64,000 nt of DNA from Hyphomicrobium sp. (GCF_020852195.1 NZ_JADZBI010000137.1:3433-67432); one strand, 5' to 3'; numbered from the stretch's first letter, positions 35,047-43,180 are shown. Notes: generated by a model not told the origin, from the sequence alone. A program made the numbers and translations.

Positions 35047-36621
35047 ATGGCAAGGCAAAAGAAAAAGCTCTCCGCGTACCGCGCCAAGCGCGACTTCACG
35101 AAAACCGAGGAGCCGAGCGGCCTCGAGGCCGTCCGCGGCGCCGAATACCCCCGCTTCGTCGTGCAGAAGCACGACGCCACGCGGCTGCACTACGACCTGC
35201 GCCTCGAGATGGACGGCGTATTCAAGTCCTGGGCGGTAACGCGGGGGCCCTCGCGCGATCCGGCCGACAAGCGGCTGGCGGTCGAGGTCGAAGACCATCC
35301 GCTCGACTACGGCGACTTCGAAGGCACCATCCCGAAGGGCGAGTACGGCGGCGGCGCCGTCATGGTGTGGGACCGCGGCTTCTGGCTGCCAGAGGGCGAC
35401 AAGCCCGCGCGCGAAGCGCTCGCCGACGGCGACCTCAAGATCCTGCTCGCCGGCACCAAGCTCAAGGGAAGCTGGGTGCTCGTGCGCATGAAGCACGATC
35501 GCATGGGCGGCAAGCGCACCAACTGGCTGCTGATCAAGCATCGCGACGAATACGCCAAGTCCGGCGACAAGGATGCGCTGCTAAAGGATGATCGGTCCGT
35601 GGCGTCGGGGCGCAGCATGGCGGAGATCGCAGCCGGCAAGGGCAAGAGCCCGCAGCCGTTCATGCTCGGCGGCCGGTCGGCCTTCAAGCCCAATGCGGTC
35701 TGGCACTCGGACGGGGACGACCCCGTGCTCGGCGTGACCATCACCAAACCGGACAAGGTGCTGTGGCCAGCCACCAAGAGCGAGCCGGCCGTGACCAAGG
35801 CCGACCTGGCGCGCTATCTCGCGACGGTGGGGCCGTGGATGCTGCCGCATATCGCGGGCCGGCCCTGCTCCGTGATCCGTGCACCGGACGGGATTACGGG
35901 CGAGACGTTCTTACAGCGCCACGCCATGCGCGGCACGTCCGACCACATCACGCTGGTACGCATCGCCGGCGACCGGGAGCCCTATATCCAGATCGACAAC
36001 GTCAAAGGACTGATCGCCATGGCGCAGGCGGCGGCGCTCGAGTTCCATCCCTGGAACTGCGCCCCGAACGCGCCAACCGTTCCGGGGCGGCTGGTATTCG
36101 ACCTCGATCCTGGGCCGGACGTCGCCTTCGACGGCGTGGTGGTGGCGGCGAACGAGATGCGCGGACGGCTCGAGAAGCTGGGCCTCGTCCCCTTCTGCCG
36201 GACGACCGGCGGCAAGGGATTGCATGTCGTGGTGCCGCTCAAGACGGATCGCAACGACAAGCTCGGCTGGGACGACGCCAAGACGTTTGCGCACGCGGTT
36301 TGCGAGGGCATGGCGCACGACAACCCCAACCTTTACGTGACCACGATGCGCAAGGCGCTGCGGCGCGGAAAGATCTTCCTCGACTATCTGCGCAACGACC
36401 GCATGGCGACGGCGGTGGCGCTGCTCTCGCCGCGGGCGCGGCCCGGGGCGCCGGTGGCGATGCCGCTGACGTGGGCGCAAGTGCGCCGCGGGCTCGACCC
36501 GATGCGGTTCACGATGCGCACGGTGCCGGGCCTCATCAAGACCTCGAAGGCATGGGCCGACTACGACAAGGCGGCGCGCCCGCTCAAGGGCGCCATCCGC
36601 AAGCTCGTGGACGGGAAATGA
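35047..36621 (+). CDS. ligD: LigD phosphoesterase plus polymerase domains, lacking a ligase domain
   Basis: PE domain: [28 protein letters not shown] domain: [33 protein letters not shown]. No KxDG ligase motif. Confidence 0.9.
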
Positions 36622-36953: not shown

Positions 36954-36979
36954 AATGCTGACGGGCTTGCATGAGTTCC
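36954..36979 (-). promoter_or_regulatory. EcfG-type promoter variant
   Basis: GGAAC-N17-CATT on the minus strand, upstream of ATG 36910. Confidence 0.45.
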
Positions 36980-38017
36980 GTTGAGAAGGAGACGCGGCGC
37001 AGGCCGAACGCGCCGACGCGCGCTGCGCGAGACAGCGCGACCGCGCTGGCCGGCCGTACGCCCGATCGGATGCCGTCGTTCGTGCCGCCGTGTCTGGCCA
37101 CGCTCACCGACGCGCCGCCCGAGGGCGCGGACTGGGTGCACGAGATCAAGCTCGACGGCTACCGGCTCGAGGCGCGCATCGTGAATGGAGACGTGCGGCT
37201 GCTCACGCGCAGCGGCCTCGATTGGACAGGGCGGTTCCCGTCGATCGCCAAGGCGCTCAAGGGGCTGAAGGTCAAGAACGCGCTCATCGACGGCGAGGCG
37301 GTGGTCGAGGATGCGCGCGGCGTGACAAGCTTCGTCAAGCTGGTCGAGGCGCTCGAGACCGGCCGCTCCCAGGACATGGTGTACGTGGCGTTCGACCTCC
37401 TCTACTACGACGGCGTCGACGTCACGCCGGCGGAGCTGGGCGACCGCAAGCTCCTGCTCGAAGCCGTCATGAAGCGGAGCCGCTCGAAGCACCTGCGCTA
37501 CAGCGCGCACATTGCCGGCGACGGCGGCGTAGTGCTCAAGGAGGCCTGCGTGCTTGGGCTTGAAGGCGTGATCTCAAAGCGCGCCGACCGCCCGTACCGG
37601 TCCGGCCGCAACGGCGACTGGCTCAAGTCGAAGTGCATCCAGACCGACGAGTTTGTCATCGGCGGATACCTCGTCTCGAGTGTCGACGCCAGGGCGGTAG
37701 GAGCGCTGGCGGTCGGCACGTTCGAGCGTGGGCGTCTCGTCTACGCCGGACGCGTCGGCACCGGGTACACGAACGCCACTGCGCGTGCGCTGTGGAAGAC
37801 GCTGCAGCCGCTCAAAACTGCGGCCGCCCCGTTTGCCGGGGCGCTCACGGCTCCTCAGCGGCGTGGCGTCGTGTGGGTTAAGCCGGAGCTCGTGGCGCAG
37901 ATCGAATACCGGGCGCTCACCGGCGACAACCTGCTCCGCCACGCGGCCTTCAAGGGCCTGCGCGAAGACAAGCCTGCCGCCGAGGTCCATCGCCCGTCCG
38001 TACACCCGCGGAAATAG
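36971..38017 (+). CDS. ligD: Stand-alone LigD-type ATP-dependent DNA ligase domain
   Basis: HEIKLDGYR (adenylated Lys), LIDGEAV, AFDLLY, EGVISKR, WLKSKC and OB-fold YAGRVGTG...LRHAAFKGLREDK. Confidence 0.9.
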   Translation: MSSVEKETRRRPNAPTRAARDSATALAGRTPDRMPSFVPPCLATLTDAPPEGADWVHEIKLDGYRLEARIVNGDVRLLTRSGLDWTGRFPSIAKALKGLKVKNALIDGEAVVEDARGVTSFVKLVEALETGRSQDMVYVAFDLLYYDGVDVTPAELGDRKLLLEAVMKRSRSKHLRYSAHIAGDGGVVLKEACVLGLEGVISKRADRPYRSGRNGDWLKSKCIQTDEFVIGGYLVSSVDARAVGALAVGTFERGRLVYAGRVGTGYTNATARALWKTLQPLKTAAAPFAGALTAPQRRGVVWVKPELVAQIEYRALTGDNLLRHAAFKGLREDKPAAEVHRPSVHPRK

Positions 38018-38161: not shown

Positions 38162-39031
38162 ATGAGAAAGATCCTCGGAGTGACCAACAGCCCGCAGGCC
38201 CACTGGGTCGGCGACGGCTTCCCCGTGCGCTCGCTGCTCTCGCCCGAGAGCGGCCTGTCGCCGTTCCTGCTGCTCGACTATGCGGGACCGGCTACATTCG
38301 CGCCGACGGATCGGCCACGCGGGGTGGGGCAGCATCCGCACCGCGGGTTCGAGACCGTCACCATCGTCTACCAGGGCGAGCTCGCGCACCGTGACTCCAC
38401 CGGCAACGGCGGCACGATCGGTCCGGGCGACGTGCAGTGGATGACGGCGGCCTCGGGCATCCTGCACGAGGAGTTCCATTCGGAGGCGTTCACCCGCACG
38501 GGCGGAACGCTCGAGATGGTGCAGCTCTGGGTCAACCTGCCCGCCAAGGACAAGAAGGCGCCTCCGGGCTACCAGACGCTCCTCAACGCCGACATCCCGT
38601 CCGTCGATCTCGCGGACGGGGCGGGGCGCGTGCGGGTGATCGCGGGCGACTACGAGGGCCAGACGGGACCGGCGCGGACGTTCACGCCGATCAACATCTG
38701 GGACCTCCGGCTCGCGCGCGACAAGACCACGACGCTCACGCTGCCCGAGGGACACACGGTCGCCTTGGCGGTGCTCGGCGGAACGGTGCTGGTCAACGGC
38801 GAGGAGGTCGTGCGGAGCGGACAGCTCGTCGCGTTCGAAAGGAGCGGCGGCGCCATCACGCTCGAGGCCAACAACGACGTGACGGTGCTCGTTCTCTCGG
38901 GCGAGCCGATCAACGAGCAGGTGGTGGCGCATGGGCCGTTCGTGATGAACACGGTCGGTGAGATCAAGCAGGCCATGCTCGACTTCGAGCAGGGCCGCTT
39001 CGGCGCCATGACGGCCGAGACGCTGCACTAG
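38162..39031 (+). CDS. Pirin family protein
   Basis: HWVGDGFPVRS, PFLLLDY, HPHRGFETVT, QWMTAASGILHEE and GPFVMN. Confidence 0.95.
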   Translation: MRKILGVTNSPQAHWVGDGFPVRSLLSPESGLSPFLLLDYAGPATFAPTDRPRGVGQHPHRGFETVTIVYQGELAHRDSTGNGGTIGPGDVQWMTAASGILHEEFHSEAFTRTGGTLEMVQLWVNLPAKDKKAPPGYQTLLNADIPSVDLADGAGRVRVIAGDYEGQTGPARTFTPINIWDLRLARDKTTTLTLPEGHTVALAVLGGTVLVNGEEVVRSGQLVAFERSGGAITLEANNDVTVLVLSGEPINEQVVAHGPFVMNTVGEIKQAMLDFEQGRFGAMTAETLH

Positions 39032-39037
39032 GCGTAT

Positions 39038-39076
39038 CCCCCTCTCCCCGTTTTTACGGGAAGAGGGGGCTTTTAT
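39038..39076. terminator. Hairpin between the convergent pirin and ABC genes (terminator or small repeat)
   Basis: CCCCCTCTCCCCG/CGGGAAGAGGGGG stem followed by CTTTTATT. Confidence 0.6.
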
Positions 39077-40875
39077 TACTCCGCGGCGCGGAGGTCGCTC
39101 GTCTGGCGCTCGAACAGGTGCCGGTAGCGGCCGTTCGGGCGGCGGATCAGCTCGCCGTGCGGGCCGTCCTCGACGATTCGGCCCGCCTCGAACACCAGGA
39201 TGCGATCGAGCGCGCGTACCGTCGACAGGCGGTGGGCGATAACGATCGCCGTGCGCCCTTTCAACAGCCGCTCGACTGCTGCCTGGATCGCCTGCTCCGA
39301 CTCCGAGTCGAGGCTCGACGTGGCCTCGTCCAGGATCAGGATCGGCGCATCGGCGAGGAACGCACGCGCGATGGCGATGCGCTGGCGCTCGCCGCCCGAC
39401 AGCTTCACGCCGCGCTCGCCGACGAGCGTCTGATAGCCCTTCGGCAGGCGGGCGATGAAGTCGTGCGCATTGGCCAGACGTGCCGCCCGCTCGATCTCCG
39501 CCTCCGACGCGCCCGGCCGCGCGTAGCCGATGTTCTCGGCCAACGTGCGGTGGAACAGGATCGGCTCCTGCGGGACGATGGCGATCTGCGAGCGCAGCGA
39601 CTGCTGCGTCACGCCGGACACATCCTGTCCGTCGATCAGGACGCGGCCGCCCGTGACGTCGTAGAGCCGCTGGACCAGCTTCACGAACGTCGTCTTGCCC
39701 GAGCCCGAGTGGCCGACGAGGCCCACACGCTCGCCGCCCCGGATCACGACCGAGAGGTCGCTATAGAGCGGCGTCTCGTGCGCGCCGTAGTGGAAGGCCA
39801 CGTCCTCGAACCGCACCTCGCCGGCCGTGATCCGCATGCGTGCCGCGTCCGGGCGATCCGCGATGCCGATGGGCGTGGCATGCAGCTCCACCAGCTCGTC
39901 CATCTCGTTGACGGAACGCTGCAGGTTGTGCACGTGCATGCCCACGTCGCGCAGATAGCCGTGCACGACGAAGTACGTCGTTAGCAGGTACGTCACGTCG
40001 CCGGGCGTAGCGCGGTCTATCCACCAGAGCCAGATACCGGCGCCGGCGAGCAACGAGCGCACGAGCAGCAGCACCACGTGCTGGCCCGTTCCCGCTAGCG
40101 TGTGGCGGAACCACGTGCGCGCGCTGCGCCGGCTCCATTTGGCTAGGACACGGGCAAGCCGCGCATCCTCGCGCGCCTCGGCGCCATACGCCTTGACGAC
40201 GGCGTTGCAACCCAGCGCGTCGGCCAGCGTGCCGCCGATGCGCGTGTCCCAGGCGTTCGAGAGCTTGGAGGCCGGCGCGATGTAGAACACGGCGAGTGAG
40301 ACGGTCATGGCGACGTAGGCCGCAGCACCCAGCGCGACGATCAGGCCCATCAACGGCCACTGCACGGCGAGCAGCACCGTCGTCGCGACGAGCACGAATG
40401 CGGACGGCAACAGCGCGAGGAGCAGCGTATCGTTCAACTGGTCAACCGCCCACATGCCGCGCGTGACCTTGCGCATCACCGAGCCCGAGAAGCTGTTGGC
40501 GTGCCAATCCGTCGAGAAACGCTGCACGCGCGCGAACGTCTCCTGCGCGATGTCCGTCATCATGCCGAGCGACAGCGGGATCACGCCGAGCCAGCCGTAG
40601 TGGCGCAGGCCCACCATGGCGACGCCGAGCGCGATCATGATGCCGAACGCCTCCAGCGCGCGTGCGAGCGCAACCTCGCGCGCCGTGTCGGCGACCAGAA
40701 GCGCGTCGACAAGGCGGCCCGAGAAGAACGGAATGAACACGTCGGCCAGCGTGGCGAGCAGGATGGCGCCGGCGACCCGGGCCACCATCAGCTTGCGCCG
40801 GCGCCAGTGGCCGGCGGCATAGGCGAGCACGGCGCTGATCGCCGCGCGTTCGCCGTTGCGGTTCTCACTTGTCAT
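39076..40875 (-). CDS. Type IV ABC exporter (fused permease and ATPase)
   Basis: Six-TM domain, then GHSGSGKTT, LSGGERQRIAIAR, ILDEATSSLD and AHRLST. Confidence 0.92.
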   Translation of the reverse strand: MTSENRNGERAAISAVLAYAAGHWRRRKLMVARVAGAILLATLADVFIPFFSGRLVDALLVADTAREVALARALEAFGIMIALGVAMVGLRHYGWLGVIPLSLGMMTDIAQETFARVQRFSTDWHANSFSGSVMRKVTRGMWAVDQLNDTLLLALLPSAFVLVATTVLLAVQWPLMGLIVALGAAAYVAMTVSLAVFYIAPASKLSNAWDTRIGGTLADALGCNAVVKAYGAEAREDARLARVLAKWSRRSARTWFRHTLAGTGQHVVLLLVRSLLAGAGIWLWWIDRATPGDVTYLLTTYFVVHGYLRDVGMHVHNLQRSVNEMDELVELHATPIGIADRPDAARMRITAGEVRFEDVAFHYGAHETPLYSDLSVVIRGGERVGLVGHSGSGKTTFVKLVQRLYDVTGGRVLIDGQDVSGVTQQSLRSQIAIVPQEPILFHRTLAENIGYARPGASEAEIERAARLANAHDFIARLPKGYQTLVGERGVKLSGGERQRIAIARAFLADAPILILDEATSSLDSESEQAIQAAVERLLKGRTAIVIAHRLSTVRALDRILVFEAGRIVEDGPHGELIRRPNGRYRHLFERQTSDLRAAE

Positions 40876-41017
40876 CACACATTCGGCGCGGTGCGCCGTC
40901 TCCGAAGGATTGGGGCGCGCAAGACGCACGTCGGGCGGGCGTCTGCGGTCCAGAACAAATTTTGGGAATTGCCTTGTCGGCAAGGGCGATCGCGCGGGCG
41001 ATCCAAGGACGGTGCGG

Positions 41018-41071
41018 CTAACCGTGCCGGACGGTCCAAACCGAGAAGAGGCGCATACGTGTCACAATCAT
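41018..41071 (-). CDS. Putative leader peptide MIVTRMRLFSVWTVRHG upstream of the ABC exporter
   Basis: GGGAGG 5 nt before ATG. Ends about 140 nt before the exporter start and is followed by several hairpins. Below the ORF-track size cutoff. Confidence 0.6.
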   Translation of the reverse strand: MIVTRMRLFSVWTVRHG

Positions 41072-41258
41072 GTCGTCCTCCCCGGTTGCGTTGATGATGG
41101 GCCGGCTATACCAGCCGGCGGTGCCCGTGACAAGCCGAGCGCCGTCACGGCCTCGACTTTCATATGCCTATCCGGCGATTTGATGGCGCCGCAGGGTCCA
41201 GACGGACGAGGCTTCACCGACACGCATGATCCTGCCGACGTCGCGCGCGTGGAAGCTT

Positions 41259-41351
41259 GCGTGGATCCCGGCCTACGCCGGGATGACGTTGAGTGGTGGC
41301 GGGACGGTGCGACCAAAATGACGTCATGCCGGCGAAGTCCGGCACCCACGC
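41259..41351. repeat. Inverted pair of REP-like palindromic elements
   Basis: GCGTGGATCCCGGCCTACGCCGGGATGACG (41259-41288) and CGTCATGCCGGCGAAGTCCGGCACCCACGC (41322-41351) are near reverse complements, each with an internal hairpin. Confidence 0.75.
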
Positions 41352-41404
41352 CAGTCTCAACGCTTGGGCGGGTAGACGTCAGGATTCGACCGTGACGTGT
41401 TGGC

Positions 41405-42193
41405 TCAGACCACGCTGCGCACGAGACCGCCCTCGGCGCGGATCGCGGCGCCGTTGATGGCCGCGGCGCGGTCGGAGCAGACGAAGGCCACCACGTCGCC
41501 GATCTCCTTGGGGTCGATCAGGCGGCCGATCAGCGACGTCGGGCGGTTCTCGGCGATGAACTTGCGCTCGGCGTCGGCGAAACTCAGGCCCGCGTAGATG
41601 CCGCCGATGAACTCCTCGACGCCCGGCGTGCGCGTGGGACCCGGCAGCACCGAGTTCACGGTCACGCGCGTGTTCTTGGTCAGCTCGGCCAGTGAGCGGG
41701 AGATGGCGAGCTGCATGGTCTTGGTGGCGCTGTAGTGGGCCATCTCGGGTGCGGGGTTCACGCCGGATTCACTCGATATGAAAATCACGCGACCGTGACC
41801 GCGGTCGAGCATGCCGCGCAAGTAGTGGCGCGTGAGGCGCACGCCGCTCATGATGTTGACCTCGAACAGGCGCTGCCACGCCTCGTCCGTCTCGTCGAAA
41901 AATCCGACCGCCTCGTAGATGCCGAGGTTGTTGACCAGGATATCGACCGAGGGCAGCGCCGCGATCGTGGCCGCACAGCCTTGTGCCGTGCCGTTGTCGG
42001 CCGCGAGCGGCACGAGGTCGGCGTTCGGGAGCCCTGCGCGTATGTCGGCGATCGCCTTGTCGACGCTCGCCTGCGTGCGGCCGTTGACGACCACGCGCGC
42101 GCCGTCGGCGGCGAGCGCACGGGCTATCTCGAGCCCGATGCCTCCGGACGAGGCCGTGACCAACGCCGTCTTGCCTGCGAGATTGAGATCCAT
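41405..42193 (-). CDS. Short-chain dehydrogenase/reductase (SDR)
   Basis: [14 protein letters not shown], catalytic YSATK and VNSVLPGPT. Confidence 0.93.
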
Positions 42194-42268
42194 CCGTTTG
42201 CCCTCGTTTCTGGTCGGAGTTCGAGTTCTTGCGTGCCGTTACGTGCCGCATGATGCGTCAGATCAGCC

Positions 42269-43180
42269 TCACGGCGTTGCGGCGACAGCAGCACTCCTTT
42301 TCGGCGGGGTTCGGCTCTCGCGGCCCACGGAGGCGAACTCCTCGCGCAGCACCGCGGCCAGCTCGGTCGCCATGTCGTTCTGCGTGTTGCGCGGCAGGTA
42401 GAGATTGACGTGGCAGGTCGGCAATCTGGGAAGGCCGGCGGCGTCGCTCAAGATGGCGAGCCTCTTCGGCGCGGCGCACGAGAGCATCGGCGCCACCGCG
42501 AGATCCGCCTCCAGCGTGGCGATCATGGGCTCGAGGCTGTTGCTCTCGCTGACGGGACGCCATTGGCGATGCCACTTGGCCAGCGCCGCCAGCGCGTAGG
42601 GGCGGAAGGCGCAGGTGTCGGCGCCGAGGGAGACGGGCAGCGGATCCCTGAGATAGGCATCGCCGCCGTCAGCGCCGACCCATACGAGCTGGTCGACGAG
42701 CAGGCTTTCGGCGCGCGCAGGGCGCGCGGCTTCGGTGGTCAGCGTGAGGTCCAGCTCGCCGCGGCTCAGGGCTTCCAGCAGCAGGCGTGAGGTGCTGGTC
42801 ATCAGCGAGACACGTACGTTCGGAAAGCGCTTGTCGAAAAGGCGCAGCACCTTGGGCAGGAAACGGGCAACGAGATCGTACGGCACGCCGAGACGCACCT
42901 CACCGTCGAAGGCGGGTGCCGCCATGGCGCGCCATGTCTCGTCGTTCAACGCAATCAGCTTCTGGGCGTACGGCAAGAGCCGCTCACCGTCCGGGCTCAA
43001 CACCAGCCGGCGTTGCGTGCGCACGAACATGGGCTTGCCGATGAGCTCCTCGAGTCGCTTGATCTGCTGGCTCACCGCGGCCTGCGTGAGGCTCAGCGTG
43101 CCGGCCGCCTCCGTCACCGAGCCGGTCTCGACGACAGCGGTGAAGGCGCGCAGAAGCCCCATGTCGATGTTGCGCACCAT
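42269..43180 (-). CDS. LysR family transcriptional regulator
   Basis: LLRAF...SVTEAA..LSLTQAAVSQQIKRLEE HTH, followed by a substrate-binding domain. Confidence 0.93.
   Translation of the reverse strand: MVRNIDMGLLRAFTAVVETGSVTEAAGTLSLTQAAVSQQIKRLEELIGKPMFVRTQRRLVLSPDGERLLPYAQKLIALNDETWRAMAAPAFDGEVRLGVPYDLVARFLPKVLRLFDKRFPNVRVSLMTSTSRLLLEALSRGELDLTLTTEAARPARAESLLVDQLVWVGADGGDAYLRDPLPVSLGADTCAFRPYALAALAKWHRQWRPVSESNSLEPMIATLEADLAVAPMLSCAAPKRLAILSDAAGLPRLPTCHVNLYLPRNTQNDMATELAAVLREEFASVGRESRTPPKRSAAVAATP

Follow-up and report, generated by a model that had tools for sequence, protein, structure and literature searches.

A gene for an ATP-binding cassette (ABC) exporter of 599 amino acids (aa) lies on the minus strand of a 64,000-nucleotide (nt) stretch of DNA from Hyphomicrobium sp. 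(GCF_020852195.1 NZ_JADZBI010000137.1:3433-67432; hereafter, the window) and is preceded by a short upstream open reading frame (uORF). To judge from comparison with related genomes, this leader and exporter are one copy of a leader family that accompanies the exporter across much of the Alphaproteobacteria. Because the uORF is conserved upstream of this exporter family, a ribosome-dependent regulatory role for it is very likely. By analogy with the duf1127-1 leader of Sinorhizobium meliloti, the leader may be a Rho-type, uORF-dependent attenuator that reads translation status, a proposal that stands an even chance of being right. The exporter start itself is, on the evidence of covariation, a split ribosome-binding site (RBS), in which a hairpin brings a distant GGAG close to the AUG. 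All features discussed are on the minus strand unless marked otherwise, and all coordinates are those of the window.

A uORF conserved upstream of the exporter

The uORF (41071-41018) begins with the ATG at 41071-41069 and comprises 17 codons encoding the peptide MIVTRMRLFSVWTVRHG, followed by TAG (41020-41018). Its Shine-Dalgarno (SD) sequence, GGGGAGG (41083-41077), lies 5 nt before the ATG and is invariant in the genus alignment, and 142 nt separate the uORF stop from the exporter ATG. An earlier, original prediction for this DNA had described GGGAGG (41082-41077), a 5-nt gap, and a 17-codon uORF at the same place, and had proposed that ribosomes stalling at an R-M-R motif in the leader peptide induce the exporter. 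The observation of the uORF is confirmed by direct reading of the sequence and by orthologues; the interpretation is supported in part.

Orthologous loci were collected by a search with one genome per species, which gave 80 loci with exporters 59-85% identical, and by a search of 80 relatives, which gave nine further congeners. Qualifying uORFs were those with an ATG, an SD score of at least 4, and 9-36 codons. Such a uORF is present in 81 of 92 distinct orthologous upstream regions, compared with 16 reverse complements and a mean of 5.1 in shuffled sequences; conservation upstream of orthologues, which the original prediction had named as its own check, is thus borne out. The usual uORF is 13-28 codons long, has a strong SD, and is located ~140-260 nt upstream of the exporter start in nearly all regions, and across the family, positions -12 to -7 of the uORF are 69% G. 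The loci span Hyphomicrobium, Azospirillum, sphingomonads, Methylobacterium, Dongia, Devosia, Bradyrhizobium, and some Beta- and Gammaproteobacteria. Four loci outside the count carry a TTG-started or weaker-SD equivalent, and three betaproteobacterial copies are without a leader. In two Azospirillum loci (L005 and L007), the uORF is gone, and a G-rich/C-rich inverted-repeat element (GGGGAGAGGGTCAGGGTGAGG...CCTCACCCTCCCC...) is found in its place, ~100-250 nt before the exporter start; the leader thus seems to have been disrupted naturally by insertion of a repeat.

Within the genus (10 congeners), the uORF SD, ATG, and reading frame are invariant against a mean column identity of 63%, and the frame survives a 3-nt indel of one subclade. 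The exporter gene is present in 10 of 26 genomes of the genus and is hence an accessory gene.

Such conservation bears on the view that there is no switch at all, with the uORF and its hairpins forming a constitutive 5′ untranslated region (UTR) that provides stability or a fixed brake, or with the peptide having a job of its own. The window's 241-nt leader alone folds no better than its shuffles (z = -1.2), which agrees with a constitutive UTR and means that the case for regulation rests on comparison rather than on the window sequence alone; the masking of ribosome positions described below, which is without effect, points the same way. Against this, the uORF has kept its SD, ATG, frame, position, and range of lengths through class-level divergence even though its peptide has changed freely, as is typical where a uORF is required in cis, and the design matches a tested attenuator part for part; peptides so variable are, moreover, unlikely to act in trans. 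A leader without a switch is considered very improbable.

A drifting peptide

The genus consensus peptide is M-[IT]-x-T-R-L-x-L-x-P-V-W-T-V-R-H-S, and the window copy is the sole genus member without Pro10, having Ser instead. Between clades, the peptides cannot be aligned. Of the uORF substitutions counted in 22 phylogenetically disjoint pairs, 83, 79, and 81 hit codon positions 1, 2, and 3, respectively, and codons with synonymous-only and non-synonymous differences number 37 and 130, against 34/126 and 30/132 in the two off-frames. This lack of codon periodicity, together with the same synonymous to non-synonymous ratio in all three frames, suggests that the peptide as a whole is under no visible selection, these counts having given no signal at the peptide level. 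What is conserved, as far as sequence comparison can tell, is an RNA design and not a peptide.

The R-M-R motif occupies uORF codons 5-7 (41059-41051), and the original prediction likened it to the motif of ErmDL. In the corresponding model of a macrolide sensor, a drug-bound ribosome would arrest with Met6 in the P site and Arg7 in the A site, and competing hairpins would then free the exporter RBS. The rule that R/K-X-R/K (+X+) motifs arrest such ribosomes is well established (PMC8298421, PMC12583479). Three congeners carry RLR, identical to the ErmDL core, at the same place; +X+ occurs in 29 of 70 family peptides, compared with 18.4 +/- 3.2 expected from shuffles; and an arrested ribosome would cover codons 2-11 and thus the 3′ arm of helix P1 (see below). 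The excess of +X+ ignores the relatedness of the sequences, though, and GC-rich helices favour Arg and Pro codons in any case. R-x-R is found in only 4 of 10 congeners and is missing from the other six and from whole clades; the Dongia-type MGYMFVPIDPGPSEH, for one, contains neither Arg nor Lys. R-M-R thus does not hold up as a conserved feature. Nor is the proposed switch conserved: the words ACCGT (41035-41031), ACGGT (41025-41021), ACCGT (41013-41009), and CGTCCTT (41011-41005) are all present as originally described, but the competition between the first three depends on the window's CAC GGT codons, where relatives read, among others, CAC TCT or CTC TCT, and the conserved pairing is instead that of GGAC with GTCC on either side of the stop. 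Equilibrium folding does not predict that the exporter RBS opens, and the pump lies outside the known macrolide-resistance families. A macrolide sensor of the ErmDL type is, on balance, very improbable. The broader idea that stalling induces the exporter is plausible given the conserved uORF, and induction by ribosome stalling is the most plausible output of the leader; it is the macrolide-specific reading that finds no support, as the motif is not conserved and the exporter matches no resistance family specifically.

The C-terminal end of the uORF shows other regularities. TAG is the stop codon in 51 of 81 leaders, compared with 28.5% of long ORFs in the same loci; a G follows the stop directly in 48 of 81; 27 of 70 peptides have a His among their final three residues (9 expected), which is encoded by CAC or CAT, occupies position -1 or -2, and recurs in at least 10 separate clades. 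The leader peptides contain hardly any acidic residues, and the stop codon always lies inside hairpin P2. All but the G after the stop have been taken here as pointing to an arrest peptide resembling TnaC or SpeFL, in which the nascent peptide and a small molecule, perhaps the substrate of the pump, would block RF1 termination at UAG, and the parked ribosome would melt P2, thereby switching the leader. This explanation has to contend with the want of both codon-position bias and synonymous excess, and with RNA structure as a possible source of most of the recurring residues: Thr, Ile, and Met would come from an A/U-rich loop; Pro, Ser, and Leu from the anti-SD; and Arg, Gly, and Ala from GC-rich arms. 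Several clades have peptides ending in ...GIA, ...LPA, or ...CQI, with TGA; and within the genus, His has changed to Leu twice and one copy is truncated ahead of the His. An arrest peptide is judged decidedly unlikely, and the stronger form of the proposal—a new arrest-peptide family in which ...R-H-(S) beside a UAG held in P2 would make termination by RF1 respond to a small molecule, perhaps the substrate of the pump itself—is a long shot.

The truncated copy is that of congener G001 (L001/L084), in which a single C-to-T change (CGG to TGA) leaves a peptide of 14 residues (MTITRLFLGPVWTV) that lacks the R-H-S end. The SD and P1 of this copy are still intact, as is the split RBS of its exporter, and it offers a natural test of any role of the C terminus.

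Hairpins and a C-rich spacer

Two helices involve the uORF itself. Helix P1 (41087-41041), obtained from the minimum-energy fold and the RNAalifold consensus, pairs the SD region (41087-41077) with the C-rich codons 7-11 (CCTCTTCTCGG, 41051-41041) and leaves the AUG in its loop, which is predicted to be A/U-rich across the family. Its outer 10 pairs are ~90% kept in the genus, and at least four such pairs can form in 80 of 81 leaders, compared with 47.6 in shuffles. Family-wide, C makes up 47-56% and G 16-23% of uORF nucleotides +18 to +29, and P1 pairing would account for the recurrence of Pro, Ser, and Leu codons.

Helix P2 (41037-41007), obtained from the fold and the genus alignment, spans the uORF stop, pairing GGACCGTCCGG (41037-41027) with CCGCACCGTCC (41017-41007) and its loop contains the TA of TAG. 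Across the genus alignment, 82.5% of the outer helix is paired, and three of its four pairs change on both sides, with GCGT/ACGC replacing GGAC/GTCC in one subclade; in other clades, the stop is followed directly by the 3′ arm (TAGGTCC...). The shuffle test for P2 across the family is weak (73 versus 64.6).

Three further hairpins lie between the uORF and the exporter start, built from words that the original prediction had listed and that are present in the sequence. Two of these are backed by compensatory changes in the genus: P3a (GATCGC 41003-40998, GCGATC 40993-40988), with such changes at five of six pairs, and P4 (40944-40922; AGACGC 40944-40939 with GCGTCT 40927-40922), which is 93.8% paired with two compensated pairs. 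P3b (TTGCC 40983-40979, GGCAA 40973-40969) is weaker, being only 50% paired in the genus alignment. P3a and P3b are both small and variable.

The spacer after the uORF favours C over G. The window spacer contains 47 C and 27 G in 114 nt, and the C-G skew of the family spacer is +0.17 (positive in 76 of 81 leaders), compared with +0.02 within the exporter's coding sequence (p = 4e-14). C is most frequent and G scarcest at two places: +30 to +60 beyond the uORF stop (34-45% C, 19-24% G) and positions +18 to +29 of the uORF. A pyrimidine- and A-rich, G-poor tract, AAUUCCCAAAAUUUGUUCU (40970-40952), is a candidate for the second half of a discontinuous Rho utilisation (rut) site. A distinct G-free rut tract was considered and rejected, as it is no more extreme than composition predicts, and only the overall bias of C over G is significant. 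No intrinsic terminator was found in a scan of 40500-41700; terminator-like hairpins occur in 18 of 81 leaders compared with 10 in shuffles, which was judged not to be an enrichment across the family.

A predicted split ribosome-binding site

The exporter's only SD-like sequence is a GGAG (40903-40900) located 24 nt upstream of its ATG (40875-40873), and there is no in-frame start closer to it. Between them, hairpin P5 (CGGCGC 40898-40893, loop ACC, GCGCCG 40889-40884) is followed by 8 nt, so that the initiation region (40903-40873) has a spacing of ~9 nt once P5 is folded. The original prediction was thus correct that the exporter has no well-spaced RBS in the linear sequence, and the covarying hairpin between SD and AUG accounts for that spacing. 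SD and AUG are 24-33 nt apart in most loci, and the order GGAG, hairpin, 7 to 12 nt, AUG is found in almost all.

Covariation provides the main support for P5. All six pairs change on both sides among 30 diverse sequences, with 93.8% of cells paired, compared with 29-51% in slid controls; none of 500 shuffles reach this. In folding prediction for 70 leaders, P5 has a median probability of 0.88. A covariance model of the SD-hairpin-AUG module matches only the exporter gene in the 4.2-Mb assembly, the next match being inside a coding gene.

A split RBS is a natural target for purely translational control, in which translation of the uORF, or a ribosome paused on it, would refold the leader such that the split site becomes usable or is masked (by the UUCCC tract or the leader 5′ end), with no part for Rho. 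The window fold indeed pairs the exporter GGA with the UCC of the C-run and the AUG with the leader 5′ end; across leaders, the exporter SD is unpaired 27% of the time and pairs with an 18-nt 5′ segment 23% of the time; and the exporter SD region of sphingomonads is complementary to their 5′ segment UCCAACGCG, where one change appears to be compensatory. Pairing of the tract's UCC with the exporter GGA is 93% kept in the genus but is invariant and hence uninformative. Long-range pairing of the leader 5′ end with the exporter start, which looks convincing in the sphingomonads and in single folds, was set aside: cognate duplexes of 5′ segment and translation initiation region barely exceed non-cognate ones (-19.4 versus -17.8 kcal/mol; median rank 26 of 81), and the helix is 42% kept in the genus.

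Translational control was also examined by masking, in which pairing was forbidden under the footprint of a ribosome at each codon, initiating, at the stop, or queued, and additionally with a blocked 5′ segment, using equilibrium folding of ~70-81 leaders. Whether the masked ribosome is initiating, within the uORF, terminating, or queued, accessibility of the exporter SD and AUG shifts by at most 0.03 on average, with equal numbers of leaders going up and down, and P5 is predicted to be stably formed throughout. In none of the predictions does the exporter SD pair with the uORF. Opening of the exporter start by ribosome occupancy, assessed by folding ~70-80 leaders with and without masks, does not appear at equilibrium. 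The lack of any consistent change in SD, AUG, or P5 under any mask argues, within the limits of a noisy equilibrium prediction, against an ermC-type translational switch, gives unmasking of that type no support, and leaves a decision taken during transcription. Purely translational control is considered unlikely.

A proposed Rho-type attenuator

A decision by Rho during transcription is proposed on the basis of five features: a uORF RBS that closes on itself, C-rich uORF codons, a C-rich spacer, the want of an intrinsic terminator in the scans, and a drifting peptide. Substitution without codon periodicity fits a device of RNA and ribosome traffic.

The short and efficiently initiated uORF is the first feature on the predicted transcript. 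In an unstressed cell with such an attenuator, the pioneering ribosome would open P1, translate the uORF, and depart, briefly baring the C-rich codons; together with the C-rich spacer, these would form a discontinuous rut site on which Rho could load, ending transcription before the exporter gene and keeping the pump low. Ribosomes that are stalled or missing would lead to induction. Any inhibitor of initiation or early elongation would thus act as an inducer, including, in this copy, a macrolide acting at R-M-R. Where no ribosome arrives in time, P1 would fold and cover the same C-rich codons. In both cases, transcription would read through, and the exporter would be made from its hairpin-assembled RBS. 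By analogy, what the leader senses would be stress on translation and not a single drug. Arrest by a macrolide at R-M-R could be a special case of this in the present copy, because a ribosome held there covers codons 2-11, but not the conserved principle of the family. The substrate of the pump may, at a guess, be a translation inhibitor or another toxic compound.

Several observations weigh against an attenuator of this kind. The G-poor tract is not more clustered than composition predicts (p <= 0.05 in 4% of leaders), and predicted folding places most of the spacer in P2-P4, which is untypical of a rut site. The window uORF has no overall excess of C over G (14 C, 16 G), the excess being confined to codons 7-11 and the spacer, and this copy has lost the Pro10 codon that is otherwise invariant in the genus, although P1 still forms in the fold. 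Attenuation does not account for the TAG bias, the C-terminal His excess, or the G after the stop. Equilibrium folding of GC-rich 250-nt RNAs is, furthermore, noisy, which makes the negative outcome of masking weak evidence.

Relation to known leaders

The closest parallel is the duf1127-1 leader of S. meliloti, a uORF-dependent attenuator without a terminator for which control is presumed to be Rho-dependent (Kothe et al. 2025, PMC12218461). In that leader, C-rich codons near the uORF start pair with the RBS; a further element beyond the uORF, of 38% C and 18% G, is required, and 3′ ends cluster downstream of it; attenuation requires uORF translation and is relieved by tetracycline or when no ribosome binds in time; and synonymous recoding demonstrated that the RNA matters and not the peptide (PMC12218461). 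Both are alphaproteobacterial leaders of 200-280 nt that pair the RBS with early C-rich codons (codons 3-10 in duf1127-1, 7-11 in the exporter leader), lack an intrinsic terminator, and continue after the uORF with a C-rich, G-poor element, of 34-45% C and 19-24% G in the exporter leader. That RNA rather than peptide sequence matters was tested for duf1127-1 and is suggested by sequence comparison for the exporter leader. The regulated gene encodes an ABC exporter here and a DUF1127 protein there, and the exporter leader differs further in placing its stop codon in a conserved hairpin and in the split SD-hairpin-AUG start of its main gene; the likeness is one of design, and no sequence homology is claimed.

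Control of an exporter by a leader ORF has a precedent in bmrB-bmrCD of Bacillus subtilis, in which a translated leader ORF controls a type IV ABC exporter induced by ribosome-targeting antibiotics (Reilman et al. 2014, PMC4191407). Both loci have a leader ORF directly upstream of a type IV ABC exporter; however, bmrB, a longer leader ORF, relies on an intrinsic terminator and on alternative stem-loops within it, whereas scans of the exporter leader gave no terminator, and BmrCD is a heterodimer, in contrast to the single half-transporter gene here. With ErmDL (MTHSMRLRF), the family shares a short leader ORF and a strong SD, and the window and three congeners carry R-M/L-R-L near the N terminus. 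The family differs from the Erm leaders in that conservation does not extend to the motif, the gene downstream encodes neither an rRNA methylase nor an ABC-F protein, and unmasking of the RBS by a ribosome is not predicted.

As far as they are described in the account of PMC12218461, tnaC-tnaAB and speFL-speF of Gammaproteobacteria and the bp2923 copper leader of Bordetella combine a uORF with Rho, and ribosome occupancy at or next to the rut site decides read-through. On the same account, the TnaC, SpeFL, and bp2923 peptides have strictly conserved sensor residues and a defined ligand; in the exporter leader, the C-terminal His and the TAG bias are the only hints of this kind. For the exporter start, the parallel is phage T4 genes 38 and 25, where the SD is 22-27 nt from the AUG and an intervening hairpin restores a working distance (PMC3014915). 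Here, a covarying hairpin similarly reduces 24 nt to ~9 nt, but in a cellular gene family found across a bacterial class and coupled to an upstream uORF.

Searches with Rfam covariance models gave no match to the leader at E <= 10 (39000-43000) and none in 12 orthologous loci at gathering thresholds. Full-text literature searches returned no published description of the leader or of the regulation of this exporter family, and the ABC gene in the uRBS survey of S. meliloti is a different one. The leader is thus of a known kind, comprising uORF-based attenuators and leader-controlled ABC exporters such as bmrB-bmrCD, while the family itself appears to be undescribed.

The exporter gene and its surroundings

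The exporter (40875-39076) contains the Pfam domains ABC_membrane and ABC_tran, with the transmembrane domain and the ATPase fused, and is on this basis assigned as a generic type IV (ABCB/MsbA-like) half-transporter. Its nearest solved relatives among half-transporters are Atm1, ABCB6, and Sav1866. None of the NCBIfam models, resistance models included, matches it at its cut-off; by this comparison, in which erm, msr/ABC-F, and mef were considered, it belongs to no known macrolide-resistance family and matches no other resistance family specifically.

The region 41133-40873 comprises the predicted promoter and the ~225-nt leader of a single-gene exporter transcript. A strict sigma-70 consensus scan of the region found nothing; the promoter is predicted, from conservation only, at 41133-41105 as TTGTCA (41133-41128), a 17-nt spacer, and TATAGC (41110-41105), on the basis of CTTGcc-N17-CTATA/TTATAG at equal distance in nine congeners. 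From this, we infer a transcript start at ~41098, ~27 nt before the uORF ATG. A pirin gene on the opposite strand converges on the 3′ end of the exporter gene, which is hence transcribed alone. A conserved operon partner was sought as a clue to the substrate and the idea dropped, since downstream ORFs vary in size and spacing among clades and the window has the convergent pirin gene.

Directly upstream of the exporter locus, and on the same strand, are genes for a short-chain dehydrogenase (42193-41405) and a LysR-type regulator (43387-42269). In congeners L001 and L002, too, the dehydrogenase gene stands ahead of the leader, a linkage that other clades do not show. A palindromic element of ~105 nt (window 41255-41375), containing ...GGCATGACGTCATTTTGG...CAACGTCATCCCGGCGTAGGCCGGGATCCACGC, lies between the stop of the dehydrogenase gene and the predicted exporter promoter. 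It has 65 matches in the assembly (both strands counted) at 73-84% identity and looks like a dispersed repeat of the REP/MITE type, and in L018, the orthologous leader has a related copy upstream of it. Elsewhere in the window, the functions of LigD are split over two neighbouring plus-strand genes, the first encoding a 3′-phosphoesterase and primase-polymerase (35047-36621) and the second the ATP-dependent ligase domains (36971-38017).

Implications

Regardless of how the switch operates, the SD-hairpin-AUG start would be a clean cellular case of a split ribosome-binding site, an arrangement otherwise known mainly from phage T4, and one that gene callers and RBS calculators would misjudge. 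Should the leader peptides prove to be a new arrest-peptide family, the cargo would switch on its pump from inside the ribosome in many Alphaproteobacteria, with the readout passing through a hairpin-assembled RBS. If the leader is instead a Rho-type attenuator, a patchy but widespread ABC pump of soil- and plant-associated Alphaproteobacteria would be wired to translation status. The exporter would then be a candidate for intrinsic defence against ribosome-targeting natural products, with leader-reporter fusions providing a handle on its inducers and substrate, and an attenuation logic worked out recently for one Sinorhizobium gene would be a general alphaproteobacterial design.

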